The notes beneath the pieces are model-generated. The model saw nothing but the letters and a program-made list of their open reading frames with translations, made no database searches and was not told the origin of the DNA. A stretch of 62,000 nucleotides of DNA from Chiloscyllium plagiosum (Eukaryota): contig NC_057759.1 in the NCBI RefSeq assembly GCF_004010195.1, positions 4,990,657 to 5,052,656 on the forward strand, given 5' to 3'. Both the position numbers and the translations under genes were made by a program. This document shows, one piece after another, positions 18,546 through 56,839 of the stretch (position 1 is the first letter of the stretch; each line of letters starts with the position of its first letter).

Positions 18546-18576
18546 ATGAAGATCTTCTCTGCTCTCCTACTGATCA
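18546..18576 (+). pseudogene. Signal peptide exon S1: MKIFSALLLI
   Basis: ATG plus hydrophobic run, 31 coding nt, phase-1 donor GTACGT at 18577. Confidence 0.65.
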
Positions 18577-18739
18577 GTACGTATCTCCAGCTTTTATCAC
18601 CATTTCATGCTGAGTGCAAGGACTATATCTCATTCAGCTCCTGCCCTCAGCTCAGTGTACAACGGGAATGTGAACAGAGGCACAATCCTACTGTGTACGA
18701 ACAGTAGTGTACATGTGTGCTGGCATTTCCCAGACTGTT

Positions 18740-20400
18740 TAACAAATACACACACATACAGACAGGCTCATGGACTCACTTTTACACATTCATACTCATC
18801 CTCACACGCACCCTCACATGCACACACTCTCTCACACACATTCACTTACATATTTCCTTATACTCTTAAACGCTTAGTTTCACACTCTCACGCTTACTGA
18901 CAAGCACTCACATACATTCTTTCTCTCACACACACACTTTCCAACACTGTTATTCTGTGTCACACACACACGCTCTCATATGCACTCTCACAAACTCATA
19001 CACTCTATCACTCTCACATACAATCTTTCTCACACACACTGTCTTTTTCATACACTCTCAAAATCTCTCACTCTCTCACGCACAGTGTATCTCTCTCATG
19101 TACGCTCTCTCTCATACCCTCTCTTACCCGTTCTCCTCACAATCTCTCGCAATCTTTCACGTACAGTCACCCTCTCTCACACTCTCTATTGCAATCTCTC
19201 TCTCTCTCTCACAAACAGACTCGTGTGGGAGAAAGAGAGAGTGAGAGTGCACGGGTGACAGAGAGTGAGAGTATGAGAGAGAGTGAGGGTGCGAGAGAGA
19301 GTGTGAGGGTGCGAGAGAGACCAACAGTGAGGGTGAGAGGGAGACAAAGACTGAGGGTGCGGGAGAGAGAGAGTTACACTCTCTATTACAATCTCTCTCT
19401 CTCACACAAACACACTTGTGCAGTAGAAAGAGAGAGTGAGAGTGCGAGAGTGACAGAGAATGACGGGGTGAGAGAGAGTGTGAGAGCACGAGATAGAGTG
19501 TGAGGGTGCGAAAGAGACAAAGAGTGAGGGTGCGGGGGAGAGAGAGAGTGACGTTGCGGAAGAGAGTGGGAGTGAGGGTGCAGGGGAGAGAGGGAGTGAG
19601 GGGCAGGGGAGAGAGAGAGGGTGAGGTGCGGGAGAGAGNNNNNNNNNNNNNNNNNNNNNNNNNNNNNNNNNNNNNNNNNNNNNNNNNNNNNNNNNNNNNN
19701 NNNNNNNNNNNNNNNNNNNNNNNNNNNNNNNNNNNNNNNNNNNNNNNNNNNNNNNNNNNNNNNNNNNNNNNNNNNNNNNNNNNNNNNNNNNNNNNNNNNN
19801 NNNNNNNNNNNNNNNNNNNNNNNNNNNNNNNNNNNNNNNNNNNNNNNNNNNNNNNNNNNNNNNNNNNNNNNNNNNNNNNNNNNNNNNNNNNNNNNNNNNN
19901 NNNNNNNNNNNNNNNNNNNNNNNNNNNNNNNNNNNNNNNNNNNNNNNNNNNNNNNNNNNNNNNNNNNNNNNNNNNNNNNNNNNNNNNNNNNNNNNNNNNN
20001 NNNNNNNNNNNNNNNNNNNNNNNNNNNNNNNNNNNNNNNNNNNNNNNNNNNNNNNNNNNNNNNNNNNNNNNNNNNNNNNNNNNNNNNNNNNNNNNNNNNN
20101 NNNNNNNNNNNNNNNNNNNNNNNNNNNNNNNNNNNNNNNNNNNNNNNNNNNNNNNNNNNNNNNNNNNNNNNNNNNNNNNNNNNNNNNNNNNNNNNNNNNN
20201 NNNNNNNNNNNNNNNNNNNNNNNNNCCCCCACACCCACACACACACACACTTACAGACACATGACCTCTCTCCCTCATGCACACTACCTCACACATGCAC
20301 ACACGCTCACTCTGTCTCGCTCTCACGCACACACATTCATACGCTGTTTCTCACGCACACACATTTTTTTTCTCTCACACACAAAAATGCACATGTGACC
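18740..20400. repeat. (CA)/(CT)/(GA) microsatellite-rich low-complexity tract with gap
   Basis: Dinucleotide runs flank N-gap 19639-20225. Confidence 0.9.
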
Positions 20401-20587
20401 TCAACAAATGAATCTGATTATGCATCACCACTGAACAAATTAAAGCAAGGCCCCTCATTTTAAGGTGTAGCATCACAAGAGACCATTCAGCCCTTTGAGC
20501 CAGCTCCGCCATTCAATGAGTTCATGACTGGTCTGGTCATCCTCAACTCCTCAAAGGTATTGATTGTGCCTAATTGTGTATTTTCAG

Positions 20588-20617
20588 AGCAAGTGATGAT
20601 TCTACAAATACGAGAAG
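20588..20617 (+). pseudogene. Signal peptide mini-exon S2 (30 nt): (K)QVMILQIRE(G)
   Basis: Acceptor tgtattttcAG, donor AAG|GTATGT; phase 1-1, in frame with S1 and the first Ig exon. Confidence 0.6.
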
Positions 20618-20844
20618 GTATGTTGCGATCCAGTGGGCCTTCCTTTCATGACTTGTTGAAGAACTCCACAGTGTCTGCACTAACATCAGTGTTTACATCA
20701 TGGAAAACAAAGTCACACATGTTTGGGAGATCTGAAACAAAAACAAAGTGTTGGATGAGCTCAGCAGCTCTGGCAGCATCTGTGGACTGAGAGAGAGAGA
20801 GAAAAACACAGTTAGTATTGTGTGTCCATCACATCCTGATTTAG

Positions 20845-23420
20845 AGTCATTGCGATGTATAGCACAGAAACAGGCCCTTCAGTCCAACTCGTCCACATGA
20901 CCATAGAACATAGAACATCACAGCGAAGCAGAAGCCCTTTTACCCTAGAGAATGCACCAACCTGTGGAACGACTCTTAAGCCCATCTATCCTACACTATT
21001 CCATTTTCATCCATATGTTTATCCAAAGACCATTTAAATGCCCTTAAAGTTAGCGACTCTACTACTTTTGTAGGCAGTGTATTCCATGCCCCATACTACT
21101 CTGAGTAAAGAACCTACTTCTGACATCTGTCCTATGTCTATCAACCCTCAATTTAAAGCGATGTTTCCTTCTGCTAGTCATCACCATTCGAGGCAAAAAC
21201 ACTCTCACTGTCCACCCTGTCTAACCCTCTGATTATCTTATATGCCACAATTAAGTTACCCCTCAACCTTATTCTCTCTTATGAAAATAGTCTTAAGTCC
21301 CTCAACCTTTCACCAGAAGACCTGCCCTCCAAACCAGACAAAATCCTCGTCCACCTTCTCGGAACCCCTTCCAAAGCTTCCACATCCTTCCTATAATGCA
21401 GTAACCAGAATTGATCACAATACTCCAAGTGCGGCCACACCAGAGGTTTGTACAACTGCAACATGACTTTATGGTTCTGAAACTCGATCCCTCTACTAAT
21501 AAAAGGTAACACACCGAATGCCTTCTTAATGATCCTACCAACCTGGGTGACAACTTTCAGGGATCTATGGACATAGACACTGAGATCTCTCTACTCATTT
21601 ACACTACCAAGAATCTTACCATTATCTCAGTACTCGTTATTCCTGTTGCTCCTTCCAAAGTGAATCATCTTATACTTTTCTGCATTAAACACCATTTGCC
21701 ACCTCTTAGCCCAGCTCTGATCGAGTCTACGCTGCAACCTGCAACATCCTTCACCACCATCCACAACTCAACCGATCTTAATGTCTTCCACAAATGTACT
21801 AACTCATTCTTCTGTGCCCTCATCCATGTCATTTATTAAAATAACAAACAGCAGTGGCCCCAAAGCCCATCCTTGTTGTACACCATTGCTAATTGAACTC
21901 CAGGATGAACATTTCCCATTAACCACCACCATCTTCTTTCAAGTAAACAATTTCTGATCCAAACTGCTAAATCATCCTTAATCCCATGCCTCTGTATTTT
22001 GTACAATAGTCCACTATGGGGAAACCTATCAAATGTCTTACTGCGATGCATATACACATCAACCGCTTTACCCTCATCCACCTGTTTGGTCACCTTCTCA
22101 AAGAACTCAATGAGTTTTGGGAGGCACAACCTACCTTTCACAAAACCGTGTTGACTATCCCTAATCAACATATTTCTCACCGGATGATTATAAATCATAT
22201 CTCTTATAAACTTTTCCAAAACTTTACCCAAAACCTAAGTAAAGTTCACTGGTCTGTGATTACCAAGGTTTTCTCTACTCCCCTTTTTCCACAAGGAGGC
22301 AACATTTGCTATCCAGATATCCTAAATTAATCAATCCATTTGCCAGGAGCTGGCTCATACCCTTCAAAATCTTTGCTATTCATAAACCCATCTAGATGTC
22401 TTCTAAATCTTGCAATTGAACCCATCTTCAACACTTCATCTGGCAGCTCATTCCATACATGCGTCACCCTCTGCATGAAAAAGGTGCCCCTTAGGTCCCT
22501 TTTGAATCGTTCATCTCATACTTTAAATCTATGCCCTCTTGTTTTGTACTCCCCTACCCTGGGGATAAGACCTTGGCTATTCACACTCTCTATGCTCCTC
22601 ATGATTTTATACACCTTTATCATAAACCTTCAGCCTCGAACGTTCCAGGGAAAATAGACCCAGCTCACTCAATCTCTCCACACAGCTTACACCCTCCAAC
22701 CCTGGCAGCATTTTTGTTAATCTTTTCTCAAATTTCTCAACACCTTGCGGATGTCAGTATTCTCAATGTGCTGAACCAATGTCCTGTATAGCCATAACAT
22801 GACAACCCAACTCCTATATTCAATGCACTGACCATTAAAGCCAAGCGTACCAAATGCCCTCTTCACCTTGTTCCCCACCTGCAATGCCATCTTCAATGAA
22901 CTCTAAACCTGCATTCCAAGATCTCTTTGTCTGACAATACTCCTCAGAACCTACCGTCAAGTGTATACGTCATTTCCAGATTTGTGTTATGAAAAAGCAG
23001 CACCTCACATTTATCTAAATTGAACTCCTTCTGCCACTCTTCAGCCCATCAAATCAAGGTCCTGAGATGACCTCATTCACTGTCCACTTTGCCATCAATT
23101 GTGCTGTTGTCTGAAAATTTCCAAATCATGCCTTTTATTTTCACATCCTAATCATTTACATAAGGAAAAGCAGTGGATGCAGCACCGATCCTTGTGGCAC
23201 CCTGCTGGCCCCAGGCCTTCTCTCTGAAAAGCAATCCACCACTGTCTGTCTCCTATCTTCTAGCCAATTGTGTGTCCAATGGCTAGCTCAACAGCCTACC
23301 ATGTGGAACCTTGTCAAACTTCTTGCTGACGTCTATATAGACAACATTCACCACTCTGCTTTTATCAATCTTCCTCTCTCACTTCTCCAAAAATTCAATC
23401 AAACTATTGAGGTACGATTT
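20845..23420 (-). mobile_element. Nested CR1 RT/3' fragments
   Basis: ORFs 21836-22231 (DSQHGFVKGRLCL..IEFFEKVT) and 21279-21512 (PHLEYCDQFW). Confidence 0.85.
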
Positions 23421-23439
23421 TCCTCACACAAAGCCATGT

Positions 23440-24230
23440 TGCCACTGCATTTTGTTGATATTGGACAGGCTTTGGGGAGTCCAAAGATGTGTTACTCACT
23501 GCACACTTCCCAGCCATTGATCTGCTCTTGTAGCTATTGTGTTTTCATGGTGAGTCTAATTCAGTTTCTGGTCAAAGGTAACTGCAGGATATTAATCGAG
23601 GGGGAATTCAGTAATGGTGTTAATATTGAGTGTCAAGTGCCGTTGGTTAGATTTTCTCTTAATGGTAACCCTCAGGATGTTAATCATGGGATGAATCAGT
23701 GATGCAAACACCATTGAGGGGCGATGATTAGATTCTTTTAATGATAACAATCCAGATGTTGTGGAGGGGGAGGATGGGTTCAGTGATGGTAGCGCCATTG
23801 AGCATTAAGGTGTCCATGGTTATGATCTCTCAACATAGCCTCCAGAATGTTGATAATGGGGAACATGAAGGAGATGATGGTTAAATTATCTCTCAATGGT
23901 AACCCCAGCATGTTGATAGTGGGGGATGTGGTAATAATACCACAACTGGACACCGAAGGGCGATGCTTTTATTCTCTCTCAATCGTAACTTCCACCCCCA
24001 ATGCTGATAGTGTGAGGGAATCAGTGATGGCAATATCTTTGAAAGTGAAGGTGCTGATGAGATTCTCTCTCACTAGTCACCCCAGGATATTGATATTGAA
24101 GCGATTCAAAGATGGTAACTCAACTGAATGTCAACAGGGTGATGGTTCAATTCTCTCTTATTGGAATAGTCATTGCCTGCAATTTGTGAGTGGGAATGTT
24201 ACTTACCACTCACCAACCCAAGACAGCTTG
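23440..24230 (-). repeat. LINE RT fragment locally amplified into ~70-85-bp tandem units
   Basis: Recurrent ggtaaccc.caggatgttgatagtgggg..gatggtaat..cattga..gttagattctctct; minus strand encodes INILRVTI..ESNH..LTLNINTITE. Confidence 0.65.
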
Positions 24231-24311
24231 AGTTGTCAGAGTGGCAAGCTACTGCAACATGCTGATTTCAGTTCTTTTCATTGTGGCTGTGTGTGTTTTT
24301 GTATGGATTAG

Positions 24312-24587
24312 GTTCCTCAGTGGAGACTGGAGCACCCGTACTAACGATGGAGCCAATGTGGAACAGATTCTTAACGGGCGACCGGATCACTCTTAGCTGC
24401 GATACCGGTCGGGAGCTTCATTTGACGACCTAAAACTGGATCAGAAACAACATTTTCAAAGATTTCAAGGGGAAATCGTTCGTCATTGAGGCTGCTGGAA
24501 AGAAGCGTGATGGGGAGTACAGATGCCAAGCTTCCACATCGACACATAAAACACCTTACAGTAATAGCATACTTGTGAGCATATCCT
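24312..24587 (+). pseudogene. Ig-C2 exon 1 (FcR/FCRL D1-like) with in-frame stop
   Basis: GSSVETGAPVLTMEPMWNRFLTGDRITLSCDTGRELHLTT*NWIRNNIFKDFKGKSFVIEAAGKKRDGEYRCQASTSTHKTPYSNSILVSIS. Cys at 24398 and 24524, Trp at 24437, TAA at 24431; 276 nt; donor position reads CTGAGT instead of GTGAGT. Confidence 0.85.
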
Positions 24588-25589
24588 CTGAGTCACATCG
24601 CTCTTAGATAAACCAAACTCTTTGTTGGGGTGTTTCTAATAATTCCTAAAGATAGACAAGGGTGGGAATAGTAAGGATATTCGTCTTCTCATGGGATAGC
24701 ACCAGTGCAGCTGTGATGCACAAAGGTTCATGAATATTCACTGAATCGATTGACAGTGACCTTCACCCATCTTGTCTATCCGACCCCCCAATCCTGTCTC
24801 AGGTATTGCTGCCACATTGTGAGCCACATGCCCTTGGACCCGGCAGCTTGCCCACTCGAAGTTTGGTGGCAATTGGATCTGGAAAGGCAAGGGGTAAGAA
24901 CAGGCAGTGGTCTCCAGGAAGGACTCTTCTGATGATGGCAAGTGGGTGGGTGGAATGGTTTTGACAGACACCATCTCATGTCCAGATCTCACGGAGACTG
25001 GATCACTATTACCCAGTGGCTCTCGAAGGAGATTCGAACCCATCTTGTGGATTGTCACCCTGGTCTGCTCGATTGCGAGTCTGTGATATGACCAGTACAT
25101 ATAAGCCTGCCCCCTAGGTTCAGATATAGTTCTTCACTAAACCATCAAAGCTGCAAACAAGGGACTGAGTGGGACTATTCCATTGAATGAGAGAGCTCTC
25201 TCAAAGGGCCGAATCGCCTATGCCTTCTTCTATTTTTGATATTTCTATCATCCTCACCCAACTCTTCAGCTTTCTACCGAACTGACTCCTTCCTTCCATT
25301 TCTGTCGTTTCAATGTCATGTTTCATCCACGTGCCTGTTTGTGTGACAGTCTCGCGATTTTGAGTGCATGAGTGTTTTTTTAAATATATATTTTATATCT
25401 CTGAGAATTTTAAGTTTCTATATCAAACTGTCCTGGTCTGGAGCCTTCACAAATTAAAAGAAAAACAAAAAGAAAACATCTTGCTGGTGCACTCCCAGAT
25501 GAAAAAAGTTCTGAACTGAAACAATTTCTTGCTAAAAGAAAACCTGGAAAGAGGAGTTCACGGTCGCAAGGGGCTGTACACGCGGTTGT

Positions 25590-26560
25590 GTACAGCTGAA
25601 GCTTCAGACACGGAGAAACCCGAGGAATCCCGGCCCGTGGGGAAACCATGGAATTGTGGTGTCTGCGGGAAAGGCTTTCGTGTCCTGTCTGCCCTGGAAA
25701 GTCATCGACGCAGTCACACCGGGGAGAGGCCGGTCTCCTGCCCAGAGTCTGGGAAGGGCGTAATACATGCGTCCACTCTCTGGGCCCACCAACGGGTCCA
25801 CAACGGAGAAAGACCCTGAATGCCCCAATGGAAGGTCCACACCGGGGAGAGGCCCTTCAGCTGTCCCGAATGCAGAAGGCCTTCACCGATTCCTCCGCCC
25901 TGCTGAAGCATCAGCAGGTCCACACCAGGGGGAGGCCGTTCTCCTGCTCCGTGTGTGGGATGGGATTCAGTCAGCTGGGCAACCTGCAGAGGCATGAGTG
26001 GGTCCACACAGGGGAGAGGCCCTTCTGGTGCCCTAAGTGTGGGAAGGGGTTCACTTGCTCGGCTAAGATGATGACCCACCAGCGGGTCCACACCGGAGAA
26101 AGGCCATTCACCTGCTCCGTGTGTGGGAAGGGGATTAGTAAGGTGGGCAAGCTGCGGACACACCAGCGGGTCCACACCGGGGAGAGGCCGTTCGCCTGCT
26201 CTCAGTGCGGGACAGGGTTAATCGATTCTTCCACCCTGCTGACCCACCAGCGGGTCCACACCGGAGAAAGGCCATTCACCTGCTCCGTGTGTGGGAAAGG
26301 ATTCAGTCAATTGGGCAACCTGTGGATACACCAGCGGGTCCACACTGGGGCGAGTCCTTTTACCTGCCCGGGTGCAGAAAGGGATTCATCGATTCTTCTG
26401 GCCTGCTGACCCACCAGCAGGTCCAAATCAGGGAGCAGCTGTTCACCTGCTCTGTGAGCAGGAAGGGTTCAGTCAGGTGGGCAACCTGCAGTTGCACCAG
26501 CAGGTCCACACCAGGGACAGCCCGCACACCTGCTCTAAGTGGGAAGGTGTGCGGAGGTAC
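25590..26560 (+). pseudogene. C2H2 (Kruppel-type) zinc-finger array, about 10-11 fingers, frameshifted
   Basis: Repeated FxCxxCGKGF..L..HQRVHTGERP across ORFs 25529-25819, 25648-26409, 26205-26708 and 26291-26566; stop at 25817 and several frameshifts. Confidence 0.9.
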
Positions 26561-27404
26561 CAGTGAGTTCATGTGCCATTGCAGGGGGACTGAAGGAGCG
26601 ACGGCCTCGTGCCGTTCATTGGCTGGACAATCGACCCAGATCTGGGGACTTCTGGGTTCAAATCCTACAGCGCAAGATGGCAGAATTGGAATTCAGTCAG
26701 AAATCTGAAATTCTGAATCTAATGATGAAAACATTTTTGGGGATGAAGAAACGCCTAATTCACTCATGTTCTTTTTAGGGAAGGAAACTGCCACTGCGGA
26801 ATGGATTCACTCAGTCATCCCAGCTGCATCCTTTACCTGGTCTGGCCTATGTGTGACTCCAGTCCCACAGCAGTGTGTTTGACTCTTGACTGCAACCTCC
26901 CACCCGCCACCCCAAGAAAATGAGCGGGGAGAAACTTACTTGGATACAGTGTATAGGTTGAAATTGCTGAGTGAGGCAACACTTCCTGCAGGTTAAGGCT
27001 ATCACAAGGATCCAATGACAATGGGACCATTCAGCTGACCAATAGCAAAGGAAGTGGGGTGGGGAGTGTGTGCGCTTTGACCTTGAGCAGTTTAAAACTT
27101 AAAGCTACTTTTTGTACACCTTTTTGTTGGGGAGATCTGAAGGAGTCACAAACTTGGGTCACAATAAAGGTTACCTGAACTTCTGTGATACTCAGACATT
27201 GAAATCTCTGAGATCTAACAGGTATTTCTTTTAAAGATGCTCTTTTCTTTCAGCCTCCAGCATTAAGTTTGCAATGTCGTGTGTCAGAAGCAGCGAATGA
27301 GTAGCTACTATCGTTAGAAATTGTAAATTTTTCAGGAGTGCAGATACTGCATTGTAAAGTTTCCTGGCAGCACCAGAAGGTATGGGCTGTCTTCACTAGA
27401 AATG

Positions 27405-28800
27405 ATATGGAGGAGCTCGTGTTGAACTGGTGTGGATAAAGTTAAAAATCACTCAACACCAGGTTATAGTCCAACAGGTTTATTTGGAAGCAGTAGCTTT
27501 CGGAGCACTGCTCTGTCATCAGGTAGCTGTGGTGAAGAATCATAAATACAGAATTTATAGCAAACGTTTATAGTTTCATGCCACTGAAATGATATATTGA
27601 ACAAACCTAGATTGCTGTTAAGTCTTTCATCTTTTAGAATGGGTTGCCAGTTTCAGTTCATTAATATGTAAATCTCAGAACTTCCTTCAAGGAACATTCT
27701 CTACGAACTTTAAGATTAGATTACTTACAGTGTGGAAACAGGCCCTTCGGCCCAACAAGTCCACATTGACCCGCCGAAGTGCAACCCACCCAGACCCATT
27801 CCCCTATACCCAACACTACGGGCAATTTAGCATAGCCAATTCACATAACCTCCGCATTTTTGGATTATGGGAGCATCCGGAGGAAACCCATGCAGACACG
27901 GGGAGAATGTGCAAACTCCACACAGAGAGTCGCCTGAGGCGGGAATTGAACCCGGGTCTCTGGCGCTGTGAGGCAGCAGTGCTAACCACTGTGCCACCGT
28001 GCCGCCCACACGCCACCGTGCCGCCCACAGCTACCTGATGACAGAGCAGTGCTCCGAAAGCTACTGCTTCCAAATTTAGCATAGCCAATTCACATAACCT
28101 GCGCATTTTTGGATTATGGGAGCACCCGGAGGAAACCCATGCAGACACGGGGAGAATGTGCAAACTCCACACAGAGATTCGCCCGAGGCGGGAATTGAAC
28201 ACGGGTCTCTGGCGCTGTGAGGCAGCAGTGCTAACCACTGTGCCACCGCGCTGCCCAAGGTTAAGGTTTTACATATTTTTAAAAAATGACATCTCAGCTC
28301 AGACAATGCATTAAAGGTGTCAGGTTTGAGTCTATCTGTATCCCAGTCTTGAGTCTGACTGGTTCTATTTCCAAAGTAGGAATTTAAAATATATTACATG
28401 GAATGAAAGTCTGCAGATTTTGTGCTTTTTGGGCAAAATACAATGTATCTGCAAATACAACTCCAGTAAATGCAAATTCATCCCATAGACTTATATGTGT
28501 GTATGCATGCATGAGAGAGAGAGTGAGTGTTTGTGTTTGCTTGGTAAAATGTGTGCGTGATGGAGTGTAAACCTGTGTGAGGATATGTGTGTGGGTGTGT
28601 GTGTGTGTGTGTCTGAGAGAGGGCATGTGTATGAGCGAGGTCTGCATGACTGTATGTATGTATATGTGCTTGTGTGTGTATGGGTGTGAGTGAATGTATA
28701 GTATATTGCGGTCACCTGTGATGTGACATGAATGCAAGGTCCCTTTTGGAAGCCATCCTCATGGGTTCTGAACTTGGCTATCAGCCTCTGCTCGGCCACT
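27405..28800 (-). mobile_element. Penelope-like element 3' end with hammerhead motif, interrupted by SINEs
   Basis: EQRLIAKFRTHEDG (GIY-YIG end, 28750-28799); minus-strand CTGATGA-CAGAGCAGTGCTCC-GAAAGCTA near 27493-27521. Confidence 0.8.
27716..28256 (-). mobile_element. HE1-type SINE with partial tandem duplicate
   Basis: Full copy 27716-28008 with (TCTAA) tail; second copy 28073-28256 shares the same internal deletion. Confidence 0.9.
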
Positions 28801-29414
28801 AGAAATTATTAAGCAGTTACACAACACAAATTGGAGAGGGCAGGGTGGGAGGTGTCTTTCGATTTGTGGAAGGTGGGAGGCTTTGGATGCTGTGACCCAG
28901 GGCAAACACATGCTGGAGGACGTTCGGCTCAGAGAGTTAGAGCTGGAAGCCAGGCTGCAGGCACGTTGGGGGGAAATGTGGAAAGTTAATCAGACACTTT
29001 ATTCCAGGAGATGGTCATTCCCCTCCAGACAGAGCCTTTTGATTGGTTCAGTGGACAGTATCAGAGTGTGAGCGCGAGTCAGGCAGATAAAAGGGATCGG
29101 AGAGAGAATGGCAGGGTGGAAGAGCTAACTAGCTGGGTGACGGGAGTAAAAAGAATGTTGGGCAGGGGGTGATGGTGGTAAGGGATAAAATAGTGACAGG
29201 GATTGTCTTCATTCTCTGCAGTTGGCATCAGGAGGCCAAATGGCATTGGTGTCTGCCTGACGCAAGATTTGGGAACCAATGTGCTCAGGGCTAGAAAAAT
29301 GGAAAAGGGAGGTTGCTGTGGTGTGGTCCAACAACATCAGGAGGACAGAGCTTCCGCTGAAGGCACATGAGAAGTTTGAAGCTCAAAGACTAAGCAAAGC
29401 CTCAAAGCTCTGAG

Positions 29415-29745
29415 GGACACGGTGGCTCGCTGGTCAGCACTGCTGCTTGACAGTGCCAGGGACCAGAGTTTGATTCCATTCTGAGGTGCCAGTCTGTGTG
29501 GACTTTAGCAAGTTGTGTCTGTATGGGTTACCTCTGTATGCTCTGGTGTCTTCCCACAGTTCAAGGATTAGCAGTGTAGGAAGGATCGGCTGTGCTGTAG
29601 TGTCCAGGCATGTGCAGGTTAGGGTGGATTAGTCATGGGGGACTGCAGGGCTGTCGGGTAAGCAGATGCGTCTGGGTGGGATGCTGTTCAGAAGGTTGGT
29701 GTGAATTCGGTGGGCAAAAAGCCTGCATAGACTATATGATTCTAT
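29415..29745 (+). mobile_element. Degenerate HE1-type SINE
   Basis: Head gacacggtggctcgctggtcagcactgctgc, plus core and tail similar to other copies. Confidence 0.7.
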
Positions 29746-31104
29746 ATTGAGAAATGATTGCCCCAAGTCTGCTGTGACAGGAGTAGATTCCAGTTCATGG
29801 GACACTGACACTAGTCCTGGAGAAGGTGGGATTTGTGCTGTCTCTCCCCCCACCCTCTGCTGACTCCTGTCTATTCTGTCTCTCCTTGCACTCTGCAAAC
29901 CCCATTCTCTCAACCCCCAAACCTTCTGTCCCCCATTCTCTCTCTGCTCCACCATTCCCCGCAGTGTTTCTCTTTGCCCCCATCCTCTGTACCCGTTCAT
30001 TTTCTCTTTCCCCCACCCTCTGCACTACCCCATTCTCTCTCCTCACACTCTGGCACCCCCATTCTCTTTCCCAAACCCTCTGCCTGCCATTCTCAGTCCC
30101 CTCATTCTCTGCCCCATTCTCTTATCCACCACCGCCTGTCCGCCCAGTGTTTCACTTCCCCACCACCCTCTGTCCCCCAAGTCTTTCTCTTTCCCCACCC
30201 TCTGTCCACTTGTCCATTTTCTCTCCCTCTCTCCCACTAGCATCTGACTGTGTCCATTCTGTTTCACTTCTCCCGCCCATACTACCCCAACATCCTTTCT
30301 CATGCCTCAAGCCCTCTTTGATCACTGTATCAAGCCCTTCTCAGAAGAGAGAGAGAATGGAATGATGATGACTCTACCTGGGAGACAGTGGTGGATTAGA
30401 AATGGCTGATGTTTAAAATTGAGAATGCCTAAAATGTATTCAGAAGCATCAGTAAAGTCTGAAAGCATGTTGAATTCCTTTAAAAAGCTGCAGGCATCTT
30501 TCTGAAACTTGCATTGAAATATGCAGAATTAGGTCACAATTGAGGACAGGCTGTAAGGGGTGAATGGTCTGGTGAAATTGATTCCGGTGATGTAAAAATA
30601 GTGTCAATGGAAACAAACATTTCGGTCAGTGCCGATCAGATATCCTAAATTAATCTAGTTCCATTTGCCTAAATTTGGTCCATAACCCTCTAAACCCTTC
30701 TTGTTCGGATATCCATGCTGACGCCTTTTAAGTGTTGGAATTATACCAGCCTCCACCACTTCCTCTGGCAGCTCATTCCAAACACTACCACCCTCTGTGT
30801 GAAAAAGTTATTCTTTAAATTCCTTTTAATTTTTCGCCTTTCTTTCTCAACCTATGCCCCTCCAGTTTTAAACTTCCTCTATCTTTGGGAAAATACCTAC
30901 AAAAGTTGAGCAGCCAGGCAAAGTGTAAAAGGAATAAAATGTTGACCCACAGTGGGTAACAAATTGTGGGTCCAACCATTCGTTTTTTGCTATTGGCATT
31001 TGGACACTTAAAATCTGTCAGTAACACCAGCATCGTCACATCGCATATTGCGCATGCTCCTCGGTGTCAGGAATTACTGCGCACGTTCACCGGTGTCTGA
31101 CTGT

Positions 31105-32665
31105 GTCCATGGGGTGGTTATGGTAGGGAATTGTAACTTTCCAAACATAGACTGGGACTGCCGTAGTGTTAAGGATTTAGATAGAGTGGAATTTGTTAAA
31201 TGTATACAGGAAAATTTTCTGATTCAGTATGTGGATGTTCTTGCTGGAGAAGGTGCAAAACTTGACCTATTCTTGGGAAATAAGGCAGGGCAGGTGACTG
31301 AGGTGACAGTAGGGGAGCACTTTAATAATTCTATTAAAGTTCTAATGGAAAAGGATAGACTGGATCTAAACATTAGGCAAAAGTGAGTACTGTCAATGCT
31401 GGAGATGAGATGAGAGTATGGTGCTGCAAAAGCACAGCAGGTCAGGCAGCATCCGAGGAGCAGGAAAATCGACGTTTCGGGCAAAAGACCTTTATCATCC
31501 TGATGAAGGGATTTTGCTGGAAATGTTGATTTTTCCTGCTCCTTGGATGCTGCCTGACCTGCCATGCTTTTCCAGCACCACACTCTTGGATCTAAAAGTT
31601 GTTTAGGAGAAGGCTAATTTTGACGGTGTTAGGCTAGAACTTTCAAAAGTTGATTGGTGACAGATGTTTGCAGGTAAAGCGATGGCTGGAAAATGTGATA
31701 CCTTCAAAAATTAGACAACGACAGTACAGAGACAGTATATTTCTGTTGGGTGAAAGTAAAGGCTGGTAGATAAAAGGAATGCTGGGTGACAAGAAAAATC
31801 GAGGTTTTGGTTTCAAAATAAGACAGAAGCATATGACAGGGATAGACAGAAGAGATCAAGTGAATCCTCAGAGTATAAAGGCAGTAGGAGTGTATACTTA
31901 AGAGGGAAATCAGGAAGGCAAAACAGGGAGGTGACATAGCTTTGGTAAATTGGAATGAGGAGTATCTGAAGGTTTTTATAAATACATCAAGGACAAATGG
32001 GTAACTAGGGAGAGAATAGGGCCCCTCAAAGAATAGCAAGGCAGCCTACATATGGAACTGCAGGAGATGGGGGAGATACTAAACAAGTATTTTGCATCAG
32101 TGCTTACTTTATAGGAGGGCATGCAAGTTTGACAATGTGGGGAAATAGATGGTGACATCTTGAAAAATGTCCATATTAGAGAGGAGGTCATGCTGGATGT
32201 CTTCAAACGCACAAACGTAGATAAATCACGGGACTTGATCAGGTGTACCTGAGGACTCTGTGGGAATCTAGGAAGTGATTGCTGGGCCTCTTGCTGAGAT
32301 ATTTCTATCATTGATAGACACAGGTGAGGTGTTGGAAGACTGGAGGTAAGCTACCATGGTGCCACTGTTTAAGAAATGTGGTAAGGAAAAGTCGGGGAAC
32401 TATAGACCAGTGAGCCTGATGATGATAGGTAAATTGGAGGGAATCCCAAGGGACACGATTTGCACGTATTTGGAAAGGCAATGACTTAGTTCAGATAGTC
32501 AGCATCGTTTTATGCATGGGAAATCATGTCTCACAAATTTGATTGAGTTTTTTGAAGAATTAACAAGGAGGATTGATGACGGCAGAGCGGTGGACGTGAT
32601 CTATATGGATTCAGTAAGGGGTTCGATAAGGTTCCTCATGGGAAACTGGCTAGCAAGGTTAGCAA
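31105..32665 (+). mobile_element. CR1 ORF2 fragment (EN to RT) with palindromic Penelope-derived insertion at 31371-31586
   Basis: VVMVGNCNFPNIDW and GKSCLTNLIEFFEE; insertion flanked by tggatctaaa on both sides. Confidence 0.85.
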
Positions 32666-32804
32666 CTTGTGGATCATTTCAGAGAATATCTCTGGGATAA
32701 CCACACCAAGCCACCCCATTGTCATGTGGCCAAACACTTTAACTCCCCTCCCATACCTGCAACGACATGTAGGTCCTGGGCCTCCTCCATCACCGAACCT
32801 TAAC

Positions 32805-34565
32805 TGAGAAAGTCTATAGCCTTAAAACTTGTCTTTAAACATTCAGACTAAAACGTAATGTTGAATTATAGAACATATTTACTGCACTAGAAAAATAGAC
32901 AGGCAGACGGCTCAGAAAAAGTGTGGGAAGGGGGGAGTCTCAAGGAATGCAGAAGATAGGGACCTCTGGTCTTACCAAGTGATACCAGGATGCTGTAAGG
33001 CAATTAAGAACATTTGTCTTAGCATCAGTGAATCTGTGTGAACAGGACACCAACTGATAACATTCACAGCTGTTCCCTTATGAAATTAATGTCAATGTTT
33101 TATTCTGACCCTGAAACGAAACTCAGTACTATCAAAAGCTTTGTAATTAACAATCAGATGCTGCCAAATATAATGGAATCTCATTACCCCTTGCAAGTGG
33201 GGAAGACAGAGGGAGAAAAAAAATCTTTGCTGACTTGAGTTCAAAAGGACATTAGGGGGATAGACATTTTAGTGCTGATGCTATTGGGGCCTGTAGAAAA
33301 TTAATTCTTAGTGCTTTTCTGCTATGGATTGAATTTAACTGCATTTTGGGAATCTATGATAATATTGAGTAGCCATTACTAGTTATCAAATACAAACTCT
33401 GCTAAAGGTAATATTAATGAAGCTTTAACTTGCTGTTCTTGCAGACCATACAGACTGCCCCATGGTCAATTCTAACTAGTCAGATCTTATGTCTTATTTG
33501 AATTTGAATCATAAACTTGAAAAGAAGGCAAGTTTAATCGAAGACTAATTAATCATTTTCAGTACAATCTTGCAGCTTCAGCTTCAGGCACAGAATGATT
33601 CTATGCTAAAGATAAAAAGCAGGAATCTGCTCATCAGCTTAAAATTATTCTGAACATAGCATTGAACAGATTCTGACACAACCTTTTAGGAAGCCACTTT
33701 ATGGTCAAAAGTTAGCCTTCCTTGCTAAGGAGCCATTTTCTAAAACAATGATATCAGACATGCGAGCTGTGCAAAGTTACCTAATGACACAGAGTCATCG
33801 AGATATACAGCATGGAAACAGACCCTTTGGTCCAACCCGACCATGCCGATCAGATATCCCAAACAAATCTAGTTCCATCTGCCAGCACCCGGCCCATATA
33901 CCTCCAAACCCTTCCTATTCATATACCCATCCAAATGCCACTTAAATGTTGCAATTGTACCAGCCTCCACCACTTCCTCTGGCAGCTCATTCCATACCCA
34001 TACCACCTTCTGTGTGAAAAAGTTGACCCATAGGTCTCTCCCACTTAATTTAGACTGGCACTTCTTTATAGGAACTTATCTCACAAGCAGATGCTTAACT
34101 CAGCTGGGTTTGTTTTTCCCACCTGATAGATAGCTGAAGTCCTGTAGGAGTGATTAGCCAAGCGTGCACAGATCTGTCAGTTAACTAGTCTCCCTTACGA
34201 ATTATTGTCTTTCACTGTTATCTGTCTAATTAAGAATATGCAATGTTTTTGTAAACTTTTGTATAAAGGAAGCCACTTTGAAGCAGTACATCAGAGTAGC
34301 CTGTTAGGGCACTTGAAGAGATGGTACTCTACTCTCCTAGTTTATTAGAACCTAGTTAGTTTAGCTTATAGGTATCAGTGTTATGTTGTAACAGCGATGC
34401 TATTAGTGAATAAAGGGGATGACTAAAATTAAACTAAACTGTCTGTAAGAGGTTCTTATTCCAGACTTCCAAAAAGTATGATCTCCGAGACGAACCAAAA
34501 GACAGGCTTTACAAGTCTGAGTCCTCAAGGGATTCCCTGGGCTGACTCAAATCTATACTTTAACA
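32805..34565 (+). mobile_element. Probable long solo LTR (with CR1 3' fragment inserted at ~33790-34040)
   Basis: Starts TG abruptly after a Penelope fragment; TATAAA at 34263, AATAAA at 34409, candidate CA ends at 34527 or 34565. TSD imperfect (taac/taaa). Confidence 0.4.
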
Positions 34566-34589
34566 TAAATAGCTGAATCCTGGAGGAAG

Positions 34590-37500
34590 AGCACCCATTG
34601 CGACAAGGATATCTGTCAGGGCCCCAGCTATTTCCTCTCTTGCCTCCTAGCAACCTGGGATAAATCCCATCCGGTCCTGGGGATTTGTCTACCTTAATAG
34701 CCTCTAGCCTATCCAACACATCTTCCCTACTTATGTCAACATGATCCAGAGTAATCGAGCTTCCACCTCTAATCTCAACAGACATCATATTCCTCTCCTC
34801 CGTGAATACTAATGCAAAGTAATCATTCAGAATCTCACCTGTTTTCTCAGGTTCGACACACAGCCTTCCTTCCTTATCTTTTAGTGGACCAATCCTTTCT
34901 ATAGTTACCCGCTTGCTCCTTACATAAGAATAAAAGGCTTTGGGATTCTCCATAATTCTGCTTGCTGAAGCTATTTCATGACTCTTTTTAGCCCGCTTGA
35001 TTCCTCGTTTAAGACTGGTCCTATTCTCCCGATATTCCTCCAGGTCCTGTTCTGTTCTTACCTGCCTGAACCTTATGTATGCTTCCCTTTTCCTCATGGC
35101 TAGTTGTACGATTTCTCCTGTCATCCATGGTTCACGATTCTTGCCGTTCCTATCCCTCGCTTTCAATGGGACATGCCTACCCTGCACTATCTTCAACCTA
35201 CCTTTGAAAGCCTCCTACATATCAAATAGCTGTGTCCAATCCCCATTTCACAGCTCCTGCCTAATTTTGATATAGGCCCGGTCTAGTACACTTCCCTTAG
35301 GACCATTCTCATCTTTGTCTAAGAGTATTCTAAAACTTACAGAATTATGGTCACTGTTCCCAAAGGAATCCCCCACAGCAACTTCTACCACCTGACCTGG
35401 CTCATTCCCCAAAACCAGGTCCAATAAGGCCCCTTCACTCGTCGGACTATTGACATACTGCTCTAGAAAACTCTCCTGGATGCGTCTTACAAATTCTGCC
35501 TCATCCAGACCTCTAACACTAAGTGTATCCCAGTCAATGTTAGGAAAATTAAACAGAGGTAAGGTACCGCAGGGCTGATCATGTTGACCACCTGTACAAG
35601 AAGGGTAGGGAAATTCCAGGTAACTACAGATCAGTGAGCTTGATGTCAGTGGTGGAAAGTTTCTGGAGAAAGTACAGAAGGATAAACTCTATATTTGGAA
35701 AAGAATGGGCTTATCAGTGATAGGTAACATGCTTTTGTGCGGGGAGATTGTGCCTTACCAACTTAATAAAGTTCTTTGAGGAAGTGACCAAGTTGTTAGA
35801 TAAAGGAAGGGCTGTACATGTCATACACATGGACTTTAGTAAGGCATTTGAGAAGGTTCCCCATGGTATACTAATGGAGAAAGTGAAATCACGTGGTATG
35901 CAAGGTGTTCTAGCGAGGTGGATAAAGAACTGGTTGAGCAACAAGAAACAGAGGAGTAGTAGTTGAAGGGAGTTTCTTGAAAAGGAGAAAGGTGACTAAT
36001 GGAGAAAGTGAAATCACGTGGTATGCAAGGTGTTCTAGCGAGGTGGATAAAGAACTGGTTGAGCAACAGGAAACAGGGAGAAGTAGTTGAAGGGAGTTTC
36101 TTGAAAAGGAGAAAGGTGACCAGTCGTGTTCCACAGGGGTCAGTGCTGGGGCCACTGCTGGTATGATCAGCAAGTTTGCAGATGGCACGAACATTGGTGG
36201 AGTAGCAGAAAGCATAGGGGACTGTCAAAGAATACAGGAGAATATAGATAGACTGGAGAGTTGGGTGGAGAACTGGCATATGGAGTTCAATCCAGGCAAA
36301 TGTGAGGTGATGCATTTTGGGAAGTCTAGAGCAAATTATACAGTAAATGGAAGAGCCTTGGGAAAAGTTGATGAGCAGAGAGATTTCAGAGTTCAGGTCC
36401 ATTGTACCCTCAAGGTTGCTGCATAGGTGGGGTAGAGTGGTCAAGAAGGCATATGGTATGCTTGCCTTCATCAAACGGGGTATTGAGTATAAGAGCTGGT
36501 GGGTCATGTTAAAATTCTACAAGACATTCGTTCGGCCGCATTTAAAATACTGTGTCCAGTTCTGGTTGCCACATTACCGAAAGGATGTGGACGCTTTAGA
36601 TAGGGTGCAGAGAAAGTTTACGAGGATGTTGCCTGGTATGGAAGCTGCTAGCTATGAAAAGAAGTTGAGTGTGTGCGTAGACGAGATACAAGTCGGTCTA
36701 GAGATTTGGGGGAGCTGAAATTATGTACAGAGATTAAAAATGTTACCGAAACGGAGAAAGGAGGGAACTACTCAGCACTGATGGCATGGGAGAACAGAAT
36801 GGCCCTTGATATGATTTTAGCAGAAAAAGGGTGTGTGTGTGTGATGTTAGGAGGAAGCTGTTGTACCTTTATTCCTAATAACACTGCACCTGATGGTTCA
36901 ATTACTCAGGCCTTAAGGGCATTGACTACTTTAGCAGAGGAACTGGCTGAGAATTCAGGAGTAGACACATCTCTCACGGGATGGCTTGAATCCTGGTTTG
37001 GAAGGTAGAAGGGGGTGGTAGTTTCCATCCTTACTTCCCTGATAATAGTAGTCGGGGTATTGGTGGCCATTGGCTGTTGTATCATACCCTGTGTATGAGG
37101 GCTCACCCAAAGACTGCTTGAGACAGCCTTAATGAAACAGATGCCCCGAAAAGGAAATCAGGCAGAAGAACTTTATTAGCTAAATAATGAGGGGATGAGT
37201 GAGACCAAGATGGATGAAATCTCCGGAATGATGCTTGCGAATTTCGGGGGTGATGCTTAAAAGAAAAATGCAGAAGATAACAAATGGTAATTAAAGAAAA
37301 AGGGGAAATTGTGGGATATAGGTAAATTAATGTTACTTCTGCAATTCTAATTGATTATATAAAAATAAAATGAACTCACATCAGTGTGTAATTGTTTCAG
37401 CCAGGAGCTGAGTCAACAAGAATGGAAACTATGTGGAGGAAATGCATAATTTTTTTTGTATTAGGTAAAAATGTATGCAAGAAAGAAACGGGACTGCAAG

Positions 37501-38400: not shown

Positions 38401-39088
38401 TTGTTTTTTAATACATTTGCCTTCCTAACCCCCAACTGAACCTGCCTGTTAACCTGAAGAGAATCCTGAACGCGGACTCCCAAGTCCCTTGGTGCTTCAG
38501 ATTCCCGAAACCTTTCCCCATTTAGGAAACAGTCTCCGCCTCTATTCTTCTAATCCCATTGCATACCCTCCCACACTCAACATGTCCCATTCCCGAGGGT
38601 CAGGATGGTGGTTATTGGGGGGTGGAGGGGGACAGGAGAGATTCTGTCCCCCTCCCAGTGAGGCATCTTGTACACACCGCGAGGTCTCTCTCCGTCTCCC
38701 TGTCTCTGTACACCTGTCTGATTGTCCATGACTTGCTTTAACTCTCTGATTATGTCGATTGATCATGTACAAACCGCGAGGTCTCTCTCTGTGTCTTTAT
38801 CTCTCTCTGTTTGACTGTCTATGACTTGTTTTAACTCCACGTCGATGAATCTCGTAACACTGTGATTTTGTGCCTCTTTCTGACTCTGACTAAATTTCTT
38901 TAAAACTCTGTGTCCCTGTGTGTGTCTATGTCTCTCTCTGTTTCTCCCTGCCTCTCTGTGACCCTCTGTCTCTCTCTGACTATCAGTGACTCTGTAACTC
39001 TGACTTTATGGTGAGAGTACTGTCTGTTGCTGAACACAACAACAACTCCTACCTTAGAAAAGTGCCTAACAGTTTGCTTTAATCTCAG

Positions 39089-40460: not shown

Positions 40461-40651
40461 CCGTAGTTAACACAAATCTTTTGAAGTGTAGATTTTACAA
40501 CAGATGGAAACTTTGCAATGATGTGAAATCTCCGTTGTTTTATTTCTCCTTTCTGTCAGTTATTATCCTGTCATAGAAGATAACATCTGCGAAAAGAAAG
40601 ACAATTTCAACATCCAATATTTTATTTCCTCTTTGTCTTGTTTTGTTCCAG

Positions 40652-40937
40652 TTCCTGTTGCTGGGGTTTTCCTCACCCCCAGAGTCAATAAAATGGAGGT
40701 TCCACTTGGGAATAGTCTTGTTCGAGAGTGTGTATTGTGTCGAGGTACAGGACCGTACTTTCAATGCTAAGCATTAAACAATGCCAGCAGGAATTACAAC
40801 TTTAGCTCAGACAGGAGAGAGCTGGCCATTGAATCCTTCCAGTCCCAGCACCAAGGCAGACACCAGTGCGTCGCAATCAATAGGGGTTGGGACGATACTT
40901 AATGTGACCAGGAATTCCATCAACCTCACAGAGCCAG
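40652..40937 (+). pseudogene. Ig-C2 exon 3 (membrane-proximal FCRL-like)
   Basis: Strong acceptor ctttgtcttgttttgttccAG and donor CAG|GTAATT; PVAGVFLTPRVNKMEVPLGNSLVRECVLCRGTGPYFQC*..RELAIESFQSQHQGRHQCVAINRG/GTILNVTRNSINLTEP. Cys at 40729 and 40867, TAA at 40768, one frameshift. Confidence 0.8.
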
Positions 40938-42067: not shown

Positions 42068-42188
42068 GAAATCCCTCTCTGAATCCAACACAGGCAAACA
42101 GCACTGAGATGGCAGTACTCGTTGCCCCACTGTTTCTGATCCTTTCTCTCCTCACATTGCTTCCCATTAAACTCGAATTGGAAACAAG
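42068..42188 (+). pseudogene. Transmembrane exon: GNPSLNPTQANSTEMAVLVAPLFLILSLLTLLPI...
   Basis: Acceptor ttattgacAG is phase-1 compatible with the upstream Ig exon; 20-aa uncharged hydrophobic stretch; donor AAG|GTGGGT. Confidence 0.65.
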
Positions 42189-43135: not shown

Positions 43136-43166
43136 CTGATTCTTCGAGCAGTTCCCGGTGACACAG
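43136..43166 (+). pseudogene. Cytoplasmic mini-exon 1: (A)DSSSSSR*H(R)
   Basis: Very strong acceptor ttctttctctcttattttctccAG and donor CAG|GTAAAT; 31 nt. Confidence 0.55.
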
Positions 43167-45780: not shown

Positions 45781-46652
45781 CGGAGCACCCGGAGGAAACC
45801 CACGCAGACACGGGGAGAACGTGCAAACTCCACACAGTCAGTCGCCTGAGTCGGGAATTGAACCCGGGTCTCTGGCGCTGCGAGGCAGCAGTGCTAACCA
45901 CTGTGCCACCGTGCCGCCCACATGTTAGAGGGCTACAGCGATAGGGTTGGAGAGTGGGACTAGCTGGGTAGCTTGTTCAGGAGCTGGTACAGACACGAAT
46001 GGTCTCCTTCTGTACAGTAAAATTTTATGATTCAATGAACGTATAAGTTCTGAGCCACATTCGGGACAATTCCAGGAGGTAATTCTTTGGGACCTTGGCT
46101 CACTGACCTCGTTGCCAGGGAGTTTTGTACGCAAACCGCAGCAAATTGTTGTCACGAGCGGGATTGGAACTTGGTTGGGTCATGATCTGGAAATATTTGA
46201 TTTCAAGGGAGGCGATGGAAGAACAAGCTGAGGGTGCGAGTGAGGACAGACCTGCAAGAAATTTCGAATACACAGATCAGGTCAAGTCGATTAAAAGGTG
46301 AATATCATTCTGTGAGCTGCTGATCCTACACCATCACATATTTTAGATTAGATTAGATTAGATTAGATTACTTACAGTGTGGAAACAGGCCCTTCGGCCC
46401 AACAAGTCCACACCGACCCGCCGAAGCGAAACCCACCCATACCCCTACATTTACCCCTTACCTAACACTACGGGCAATTTAGTATAGCCAATTCACCTGG
46501 CCCTGCACATCTTCGGAGCACCCGGAGGAAGCCCACGCAGACACGGGGAGAATGTGCAAACTCCACACAGTTAGTCGCCTGAGGCGGGAATTGAACCCGG
46601 GTCTCTGGCGCTGTGAGGCAGCAGTGCTAACCACTGTGCCACCGTGCCGCCC
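45781..46652 (-). mobile_element. Two young HE1-type SINEs (45781-45921 partial, 46344-46652 with (TCTAA)n tail)
   Basis: Near-identical to 53006-53311; they flank cytoplasmic exon 2. Confidence 0.9.
46208..46297 (+). pseudogene. Cytoplasmic exon 2: (R)EAMEEQAEGASEDRPARNFEYT...
   Basis: Acceptor atttgatttcAAG; phase-2 start matches the previous exon; donor AAG|GTGAAT. A 2-nt restoration after YT would give FEYTEIRSSRLK and a phase-1 end (inferred). Confidence 0.55.
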
Positions 46653-48807: not shown

Positions 48808-48873
48808 ATGACTACGAAAAAGACAGCAGTTTGGTGTACTCAGTTTTCATCATCTCCAAACCAAGAAACGATG
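48808..48873 (+). pseudogene. Cytoplasmic exon 3: (D)DYEKDSSLVYSVFIISKPRND(G), ITIM-like
   Basis: Acceptor ttgtttcttgattgtAG, donor G|GTACAG; 66 nt, phase 1-1, open; LVYSVF motif. Confidence 0.65.
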
Positions 48874-55000: not shown

Positions 55001-55410
55001 GTGTGGATGAGCAGAGGGATCTTGGTGTCCATGTACACAGATCTCTGAAAGTTGCCACCCAGGTAAATAGTGCGGTGAGAAAGGCATATGGCGTACTGGC
55101 TTTTATCGGTAGAGGAATTGAGTTCCGGAGTCCTGAGGTCATGATGCAGTTGTATAAGACTCTGGTACGACCGCATCTGGAATATTGTGTGCAGTTTTGG
55201 TCGCCATACTAGTTAGGTTCTTCACTCAGCGAGTCGTAAGTTCATGGAATGCCCTGCCAGTAGCAGTGGTGGACTCTCCCTCTTTATGGGCATTTAAGCG
55301 GGCATTGGATAGGTATATGGAGGATAGTGGGTTAGTATAGGTTAGGTGGGCTTGGATCGGCGCAACATTGAGGGCCAAAGGGCCTGTACTGCGCTGTATT
55401 CTTCTATAAG
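52060..55410 (+). mobile_element. Near-complete CR1 (ORF1 3' end, EN, RT, 3' UTR) with internal deletions and nested insertions
   Basis: ETWV, GVFYRPP and GDFNFPNIDW (EN); ORF 54103-55212 with DFSKAFDKV, GVPQGSVLGP and FADD (RT). Confidence 0.92.
53006..53311 (+). mobile_element. Full-length HE1-type V-SINE
   Basis: tRNA-like head (TGGCACAGTGG A box, GGTTCAATTCC B box), V-core, CR1-like tail and (TCTAA)n. Confidence 0.9.
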
Positions 55411-55414
55411 AAGT

Positions 55415-56770
55415 GTAATATGGAAATTCCTGGCAATAACAGACCAGTCAGTCTTGCGTCTATGGTCAGCAAAGTTTTGGAAAGAATTCTGAGGGTTTGG
55501 ATTTATGACTAGTTAACAAAGTATAGTGTGATTAAATGCAGTTAGCATGGCTTTGTGAGGGGCAAGTCATGCCTTGCAAATCTTATTGAGTTCTTTGAGG
55601 AGGTGTCAAGACAGGTCAACGACGGTCGAGGAGTGGATGTGGAGTATATGGACTTCAGCAAGGCATATGATAGGTTTCCCCATGGTAGGTTCATTCATAA
55701 AGTCAGGAAGTATGGGATACAGGGAGATTTGGCTATCTGGATTCAGAATTGGCTGGCTGACAGAAGGCAGAGAGTGGTTGTTGATGGAAAGTATTTTGCC
55801 TGGAGGTTAGTGTTAAGTGGGGTCTCGCAGGGCTCTGTTCTTGGGCCTCTGGTCTTTGTAGTTTTTATAAATGGGGAGGTTGAGGGGTGGGTTAGTAAAT
55901 TTGCAGATGACACAAAGCTTGGAGGTGTCGTCAATGGTTATAGAGGGCTACTGTAGGCTGCAGCGCGACATAGATAGGATGCAGAGCTGGGTTGAGAAAT
56001 GGCAGATGGAGTTCAATCTGGATAAATGCAAAGTGATGCATTTTGGAAGGTCGAACTCGAATGCTGAATATAGGATTAAAGACAGGATTCTTGGCAGTGT
56101 GGAGGAACAGAGGGATCTGGGTGTGCAAATGCATAGATCCCTCAAAGTTGCCACCCAAGTGGATAGGGTTATTAAGAAAGCATATGGTGTTTTGGCTTTT
56201 ATTAACAGGGGGAATCGAGTTTAAGCACTGCGAGGTTTTGCTGCAGCTCTTCAAGTCCCTGGTGAGACCACACTTGGAATATTGTGTCCACTTCTGGTTG
56301 CCTTACTATAGGAAAGATACAGAGGCTTTGGTGAGGGTGCAAAGAAGGTTCATCAGGATGCTGTTTGGACTGGAGGGCTTGCCTTATGAAGAAGGGTTGA
56401 ACTTTTCTCTCTGGAGAGAAGGAGGAAGACAGGAGAACTGATTGAGGTGCACAGAATAATGAGAGGAATAGATAGAGTCAATAGCCAGAGACTTTTCCCC
56501 AGGGCAGATTGACTGGTACGAGAAGTCATACCTTGAAGATATTAGGAGGAAGGTATAAAGGAGACATCATAGGTAGGTTCTTTATGCAGAGAGTTGTGAA
56601 TGCATGGAATGCATTGCCAGCTGTGGTGGTGGAAGCAGAGTCACTGGGGACATTTAAGCGACTGCTAGACATGCACATGGATAGCAGTGAGTTGAGGGGT
56701 GTGTAAGTTAAGTTACTATATTTTACATGGGCCAAAGGACCTGTTCTGTGCTGTACTTTTCTCTGTTCTA
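55415..56770 (+). mobile_element. CR1 RT/3' fragment
   Basis: GKSCLANLIEFFEE, GVSQGSVLGP, SKFADDTK and PHLEYCVHFW. Confidence 0.88.
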
Positions 56771-56807
56771 TACGTACTGTTGGTAAAATGTCTTCTTTCA
56801 TTTACAG

Positions 56808-56839
56808 GTCACACTCATGGTGCAGCAGAAAAGAAACAC
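56808..56839 (+). pseudogene. Cytoplasmic mini-exon 4: (G)HTHGAAEKKH
   Basis: Acceptor tcttctttcatttacAG, perfect donor GTAAGT; phase 1 to 0, in frame with exon 48808-48873. Confidence 0.6.

Follow-up and report, generated by a model that had tools for sequence, protein, structure and literature searches.

Ten exons on the + strand of a 62,000-nucleotide stretch of the Chiloscyllium plagiosum genome (the window; NC_057759.1, positions 4,990,657-5,052,656) lie in the order leader 1, leader 2, three immunoglobulin (Ig) exons, transmembrane (TM) exon and four tail exons. An earlier note, which rightly took the DNA to be that of a shark, had read them as one decayed gene for an Fc-receptor-like (FCRL) inhibitory receptor. 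We find that the locus is very likely a non-coding chimera, in which a fragment of one FCRL-like subfamily, A (the leaders and the first Ig domain, D1), meets a duplicated unit at 25542/25543. This unit comprises a zinc-finger piece, a spacer and, from a gene of a second subfamily, B, the 3' half. The locus cannot encode a protein, given its stops, frameshifts, three dead splice sites and the loss of the last exon; decay, at least, had been diagnosed correctly.

Exons of two subfamilies in one chain

The contig of the window (8.08 Mb, in a genome of 3.56 Gb) is called C50 here; positions without this prefix are those of the window. A RefSeq protein of Chiloscyllium plagiosum has exons that are matched almost completely in this genome, as expected of bamboo-shark-type DNA. 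As the earlier note carried no inner coordinates, its ten exons were matched to ours by order, count and end points, and are presumably the same. The features of the locus are as follows.

16320..25542, + strand: 5' fragment of a subfamily A FCRL-like gene, 80-85% collinear with the A gene at C50:5227-5238 kb; it may extend further upstream
18546..18576, + strand: leader exon 1, subfamily A; 31 nt, ATG start, phase-1 GT donor
20588..20617, + strand: leader exon 2, subfamily A; 30 nt, sites intact; a paralogue contig joins the same exon to D1 here
24312..24587, + strand: FcR D1-type Ig exon, subfamily A; stop at 24431-33, donor GT lost at 24588
25543..27700, + strand: decayed C2H2 zinc-finger piece, start of the zinc-finger and B-tail unit; 2-nt microhomology at its join with the A intron
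28305..38905, + strand: repeat-rich spacer, common to sister copies of the unit and not derived from the intact B gene
39089..~39355, + strand: domain 4 (D4) exon, subfamily B; deletions of 1, 10 and 7 nt, two stops, donor lost
40652..40937, + strand: domain 5 (D5) exon, subfamily B; 12-nt deletion with stop, 5-nt frameshift
42089..42188, + strand: TM exon, subfamily B, uncharged; acceptor lost, 2-nt deletion
43136..43166, + strand: cytoplasmic exon 1, subfamily B; 31 nt, sites intact
46208..46297, + strand: cytoplasmic exon 2, subfamily B; Tyr motif altered, 2-nt deletion (frameshift)
48808..48873, + strand: cytoplasmic exon with an immunoreceptor tyrosine-based inhibitory motif (ITIM), subfamily B; +3 residue now Phe, off consensus
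56808..56839, + strand: penultimate cytoplasmic exon, subfamily B; 32 nt
58318..60638, no strand: break of collinearity, with loss of the last exon (two Tyr motifs, stop codon), which sister copies retain

For each of the ten exons the genome contains an intact paralogue whose corresponding exon aligns with it, and the exon borders are those of intact A and B paralogues, so that a chance origin of the exons is ruled out. The splice sites are mostly canonical, as had been claimed (16/19), the dead ones being the donor of D1 (24588), the donor of the second Ig exon (~39356) and the acceptor of the TM exon (42087-88). The FcR/FCRL motifs quoted in the earlier note are present.

The source genes belong to a cluster at C50:0-7.1 Mb in which three FCRL-like subfamilies, A, B and C, are interleaved. 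A search with an open D1 paralogue returned 13 subfamily A proteins from four carpet-shark genera (P0006-P0018), which RefSeq names FCGR1-like, FCGR3-like or FCRL3-5; they have a leader on two exons, as many as four Ig domains, a TM and a tail with three tyrosines. When an open copy of the third Ig exon served as the query, six other proteins came up, of subfamily B (P0020-P0025, named FCRL4 or PECAM-like), with five Ig domains. The window D1 is 73% identical to intact A and only 24% identical to the D1 of B. Comparison of intact A with the window gave matches in leader 1, leader 2 and D1 only, and no A-type exon from D2 to the tail. In D4 and D5 the window shows 66-72% identity to intact B, and the last seven exons correspond to B domains 4-5, TM and tail; the block that holds them (38906-58318) is collinear with the intact B gene at C50:2503-2531 kb, introns included. 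The three Ig exons of the earlier note are therefore real, but the 'three domains' that they seemed to form are A-D1, B-D4 and B-D5, with the zinc-finger piece in between.

The surroundings of related exons on C50 are of one type. At the other A-D1 loci, an A-type D2 follows within 4.0-9.4 kb in 8/9, and a B-D4 lies within 30 kb in none of the nine. Among 23 listed B-D4 copies (from the best 40 of 58 candidates scored), only that of the window has an A-D1 upstream, and B-D2 or D3 lies within 10 kb in only two; most B copies are thus 5'-less fragments. With exons of two subfamilies in a chain unique among these 23 copies, the reading as one decayed gene is rejected. The intact paralogues do not have this chain of exons, an outcome that the earlier note itself had named as refuting its reading, and the locus does not show the open spliced frame, single subfamily and terminal exon of a functional gene.

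The boundary between the two parts is sharp. Homology to three A loci stops at 25542-25544, where the zinc-finger piece begins. Zinc finger and B tail form an already broken unit that has been copied elsewhere on C50: in a sister unit at C50:6158-6192 kb, the zinc finger begins at the same base and the sequence is collinear through to D4, and the 7 kb examined upstream of it contain no A block. Many relatives of the zinc-finger piece lie on contig C44 (9.3-11.4 Mb), and the C50 cluster includes eight other copies of it.

Family membership of the source genes

The intact cluster members look like true Fc-receptor-like genes. Among solved structures, FCRL5 and FcgRIII D1 were the first matches of the window D1, and FCRL5 was the first match of intact A, B and C (E 1e-45, 2e-49 and 1e-71, respectively), with FCRL4 and Fc receptors among the next. 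The top ten per-domain matches among 150 representatives all came from sharks and rays, of nine genera, and are named FCRL, FCGR1-like or PECAM-like; ten further picked matches were bichir, sturgeon, paddlefish, gar, frog and mammal proteins, mostly named FCRL. In a tree built from 65 of the 111 domains extracted (97 columns, LG+G4), the D3 of intact B and C formed a starred clade with sturgeon, gar, frog and mammal FCRL D3 (98/97) that excluded Siglec/CD22-like domains and Ig domains of contig C24, and the window D1 fell into a starred clade with D1 of the Xenopus XFL family, mammals (echidna, squirrel) and teleosts (97/93). These clades, together with the first place of FCRL5, bear out the earlier assignment to an FcR/FCRL-like family. 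Consistent with this, a profile of seven shark D3-type exons scored 53.9 bits on FcgRI, at D3 alone, and B aligned in one stretch over FcgRI D1-D3. In the alignment with FcgRI, domain 2 of B (P0020/P0023) retains the BC-loop Trp that follows the first D2 Cys, as well as a basic stretch in the FG loop; the Trp of the FcgRI D1-D2 linker is not retained. The Trp and FG-loop residues of FcgRI have a role in IgG binding.

The gene structure was compared with the FcR/FCRL family criteria given in PMC2413239. D1-type and D3-type domains occur, the latter in intact B and C and not in the window, and the signal peptide is split over two short exons (31 + 30 nt). The locus does not follow the 30/21-nt leader rule, which is valid for only a fraction of XFL genes (PMC2413239). 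The exon map of the intact B gene has one phase-1 exon per Ig domain and a multi-exon Tyr tail. The window contains no D2-type domain. Intact B aligns with FcgRI D2, and shark second domains did not join tetrapod D2 in the domain tree. B domains 4 and 5 align with FCRL5 and FCRL4. A search of PDB sequences with the broken window D5 gave nothing significant, and the ESM Atlas returned only generic Ig, FCGR and FCRL clusters.

Several of our results weigh against this assignment. The domain tree is small, its model is simple and it contains no named PECAM1 or MILR1 sequence, three unnamed C24 domains serving as stand-ins; the comparison with PDB was likewise unfair to PECAM1, of which solved structures are not known beyond the N-terminal domains. 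The last domain of A groups with the C17orf99-type domains of C24 (97/99), and the window D4 adjoins one C24 domain (95/78). The window D4 and D5 lie outside the mammalian D5 clade, although a grouping with it was not rejected (p-AU 0.337), and the window D5 groups with a frog domain (96/85). A Foldseek search that started from an AlphaFold model of intact B (mean pLDDT 68) failed to discriminate: the first ranks went to PirB/LILRB3, titin and Robo, and FcgRI came 23rd and 40th, yet with the highest identity. Synteny with the FCRL neighbourhood was not shown. The markers of that neighbourhood lie at human 1q21-23 and on chicken chromosome 25; none was found among 300 of 429 open reading frames (ORFs) from 20 samples of the C50 end, the VANGL family occurring only on C12 (in a stricter first look) and DPM3 on C84727.

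The family could then be an expanded PECAM1/allergin-1/C17orf99-type sister family of inhibitory adhesion receptors rather than FcR/FCRL proper. The grouping of A's last domain and of D4 with C24 domains, the PECAM-like names of several members in RefSeq and the failure to find an activating member or an FCRL-region marker would fit this reading, which we regard as improbable: the first matches of A-D1 are the D1 of FCRL5 and FcgR, B is collinear with FcgRI over three domains, the D3 profile and the starred D3 clade point the same way, and the leader is split over two exons. We therefore retain membership of the FcR/FCRL family for the intact genes.

The C24 exons are three in number (C24:48.07-48.10 Mb); two score above the Pfam Ig_C17orf99 cut-off and two group with the last domain of A. 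We take them to resemble allergin-1 (MILR1).

Assembly of the join and age of the lesions

Sequencing reads were compared over 20300-25890. A contig of run X8 has leader 2 joined to D1 at the predicted sites; it differs from the window in 4/64 letters and so derives from a paralogue. Contigs of run X9 are identical to the window over 24371-24647 and 24959-25356, and the stop and the dead donor of D1 are present in them too. Run X14, of which ~2% was used, gave 168 reads on 20300-25890, none of them 99% alike and none on leader 2 or D1, a coverage too thin to judge expression. When sequencing runs were searched with the B block, no RNA run was among the matches listed.

Three points tell against a chimera formed in the genome as described here. 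No contig piece spans the join among those listed, run X9 included, and misassembly is possible. The break coincides exactly with the splice acceptor of the zinc-finger exon, while the A side has no donor there, a coincidence that is unexplained. In addition, the copies compared for lesions (below) are the best matches to the window, which biases sharing upward.

The first of these points raises the question whether the A/zinc-finger join is an assembly error between near-identical duplicated blocks, the fragments being real and not adjacent. The region is highly duplicated, depth is 2 in the bin just upstream of 25542, and the best run matches held only 0.27-0.35 of the B-block words. Nevertheless, there is no N gap at the join, and its two sides are unrelated beyond 2 nt, so that an overlap assembler would not merge them; the X9 contigs, moreover, are exact on the A side up to 25356, stop and dead donor included. 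An assembly error is therefore quite improbable.

The lesions of the B half are shared with other copies. The 10-nt deletion of D4 (11 nt in one copy) and the 7-nt deletion occur in 11/11 other aligned D4 copies, and the D5 frameshift in 8/14; the loss of the TM acceptor was found in 1/11, the zinc-finger sister. Because these copies lack A-D1, the shared lesions predate the join: the B half would have been dead before it joined A, and the exon chain would never have been a working receptor. It is for this reason above all that we consider it very improbable that the ten exons were once a working shuffled receptor, with A-D1 on a stalk and tail of B, that later decayed, even if exon order and phase-1 Ig exons would permit it, the A and B tails are homologous to each other and intergenic exon recombination has been described for XFL (PMC2413239); the zinc-finger piece at the join and the uniqueness of the chain among the listed copies stand against it as well.

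We envisage that birth-and-death rearrangement within the multi-megabase FCRL-like cluster made the chimera, with a join that would have arisen by deletion or by non-allelic end-joining between neighbouring duplicates, using the 2-nt microhomology. The last exon of this copy was probably deleted later. It has 39 matches in the genome, none of them on the + strand between the window and C50:5312 kb, and it is present in the sister copy at C50:169-186 kb. Any transcript from the A start would terminate at the stop in D1, and no receptor would be made.

The window also contains a short ORF at 36658-37008, which by its sequence looks like a piece of a retroviral envelope transmembrane protein.

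The cluster and its intact members

The cluster contains at least 10 A-type D1 loci, of which five match without any stop, one of the five being frameshifted; at least 23 B-D4 copies, mostly 5'-less and broken, with only ~7 loci that have a B-D2; and ~10 subfamily C loci, whose exons are mostly open and which encode up to eight Ig domains. Relatives occur in sharks and rays of nine genera (one look-up). The family is not the 'hidden' one that had been supposed: these relatives are already FCRL-named in RefSeq, and the intact members go under FCGR1-like, FCRL2-6 or PECAM-like.

Judged by their sequences, the intact paralogues are type I membrane proteins with three to eight C2 Ig domains, an uncharged TM and tails with several ITIMs. 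TM and ITIM were surveyed in 36 proteins, isoforms included, after nine partial or TM-less models had been left out; within the 36, one unrelated SRCR-Ig mosaic and one protein without TM were set aside. All 34 members with a TM have it uncharged, as does the locus itself, and 33/34 have at least one ITIM consensus, the exception being a partial model; both the uncharged TM and the inhibitory type of tail that had been proposed hold in this survey. As the seeds were all of ITIM type, activating members could have escaped. From the established biology of ITIMs, the intact members would be inhibitory receptors of leukocytes, which on binding a ligand would recruit SHP-1/2 or SHIP.

Intact members are probably expressed on B cells. 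According to PMC11372145, bamboo shark B cells express genes named fcgr1a-like, fcrl3 and fcrl5, names that are not mapped to loci of the cluster; the supplement gave tongue-sole rows only, in the best 2 of 11 matches, so that shark gene identifiers may be missed.

The TCR_zetazeta family has one match in the genome (C12:49.77 Mb), which may be CD247 or FCER1G; since it is the only match, FcR-gamma may be missing from the assembly or the lineage.

Just upstream of the window and on the same strand (C50:4,974,000-4,990,400) lies another broken A-type gene, with a frameshifted D1, a D2 with a stop and a last exon; no match to D3, D4 or TM was found in it. Just past the cluster, on the - strand at C50:7.26 Mb, are two C2-Ig exons of another type, similar to the Ig repeats of the electric-ray protein P0121, a membrane protein with SRCR and Ig repeats whose accession adjoins the FCRL2-like model of that species; they also resemble domains of the leukocyte receptor complex (LRC) type. 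A long single-ORF rhodopsin-type G-protein-coupled receptor stands beside the cluster at C50:7.16 Mb (-), with no solved relative at E 1e-10, and there is a SPRY exon at C50:8.05 Mb (+).

Implications and comparison with known systems

The locus itself is a remnant of cluster turnover, and a warning that exons in tidy order may stem from two genes. The cluster, which takes up ~7 Mb of the 8.08-Mb contig, matters more. A 2014 survey detected neither FcRL nor classical FcR nor FcR-gamma in sharks (PMC4016189); in June 2026 a review repeated that cartilaginous fish are without FCRL. Both sources ask how sharks use antibody for phagocytosis (PMC4016189, PMC13337447). The cluster looks to contradict such published statements and to be under-described; no published description of it was found in a body of literature without most subscription journals. 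Novelty is tempered by the existing RefSeq names, by the single-cell paper that uses those names and by a paper from 2021, in which Wang, Belosevic and Stafford are said to have reported two fcrl genes in elephant shark. A study of 1988, to go by its title, reportedly dealt with Fc-receptor activity for shark IgM, and the cluster members are concrete candidates for that activity.

It is conceivable, though on the sequences we would put it forward only tentatively, that sharks and rays keep the ancestral FCRL locus as a large, all-inhibitory cluster, and that intact B or C members are receptors for shark IgM, IgW or IgNAR. Were this so, antibody sensing by the FCRL family would be as old as the first jawed vertebrates, in which it would have restrained B cells, and activating partners coupled to FcR-gamma would have been added later, in bony vertebrates.

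The nearest known relatives of the window exons are the carpet-shark RefSeq members of A and B, direct paralogues with the same exon borders. These are intact receptors of three to five domains, each of one subfamily, whereas in the window two subfamilies are mixed, D2, D3 and the last exon are missing and no frame is open. Human FCRL5, FCRL4 and FcgRI resemble B in the order D1-D2-D3 followed by a D5-like domain, in the split leader and in the multi-exon Tyr tail; at ~25-30% identity to the shark proteins, one-to-one orthology is not claimed, and leader exon 2 of subfamily A has 30 nt as against 21 nt. Teleost LITR, a label that is our reading of the sequences, have a D1 type in the same starred clade as the window D1. 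According to PMC2413239, LITR are without the D3-D5 types, whereas shark B and C have D3, so that an LITR identity (D1/D2 without D3-D5) does not apply. Xenopus XFL (same source) come closest in organization, with a large tandem cluster, many architectures, fragments, exon recombination and the common D1 and D3 types. Roughly half of the XFL genes encode activating receptors, which have a charged TM and use FcR-gamma, whereas a charged core residue was found in 0/34 of the shark and ray members.

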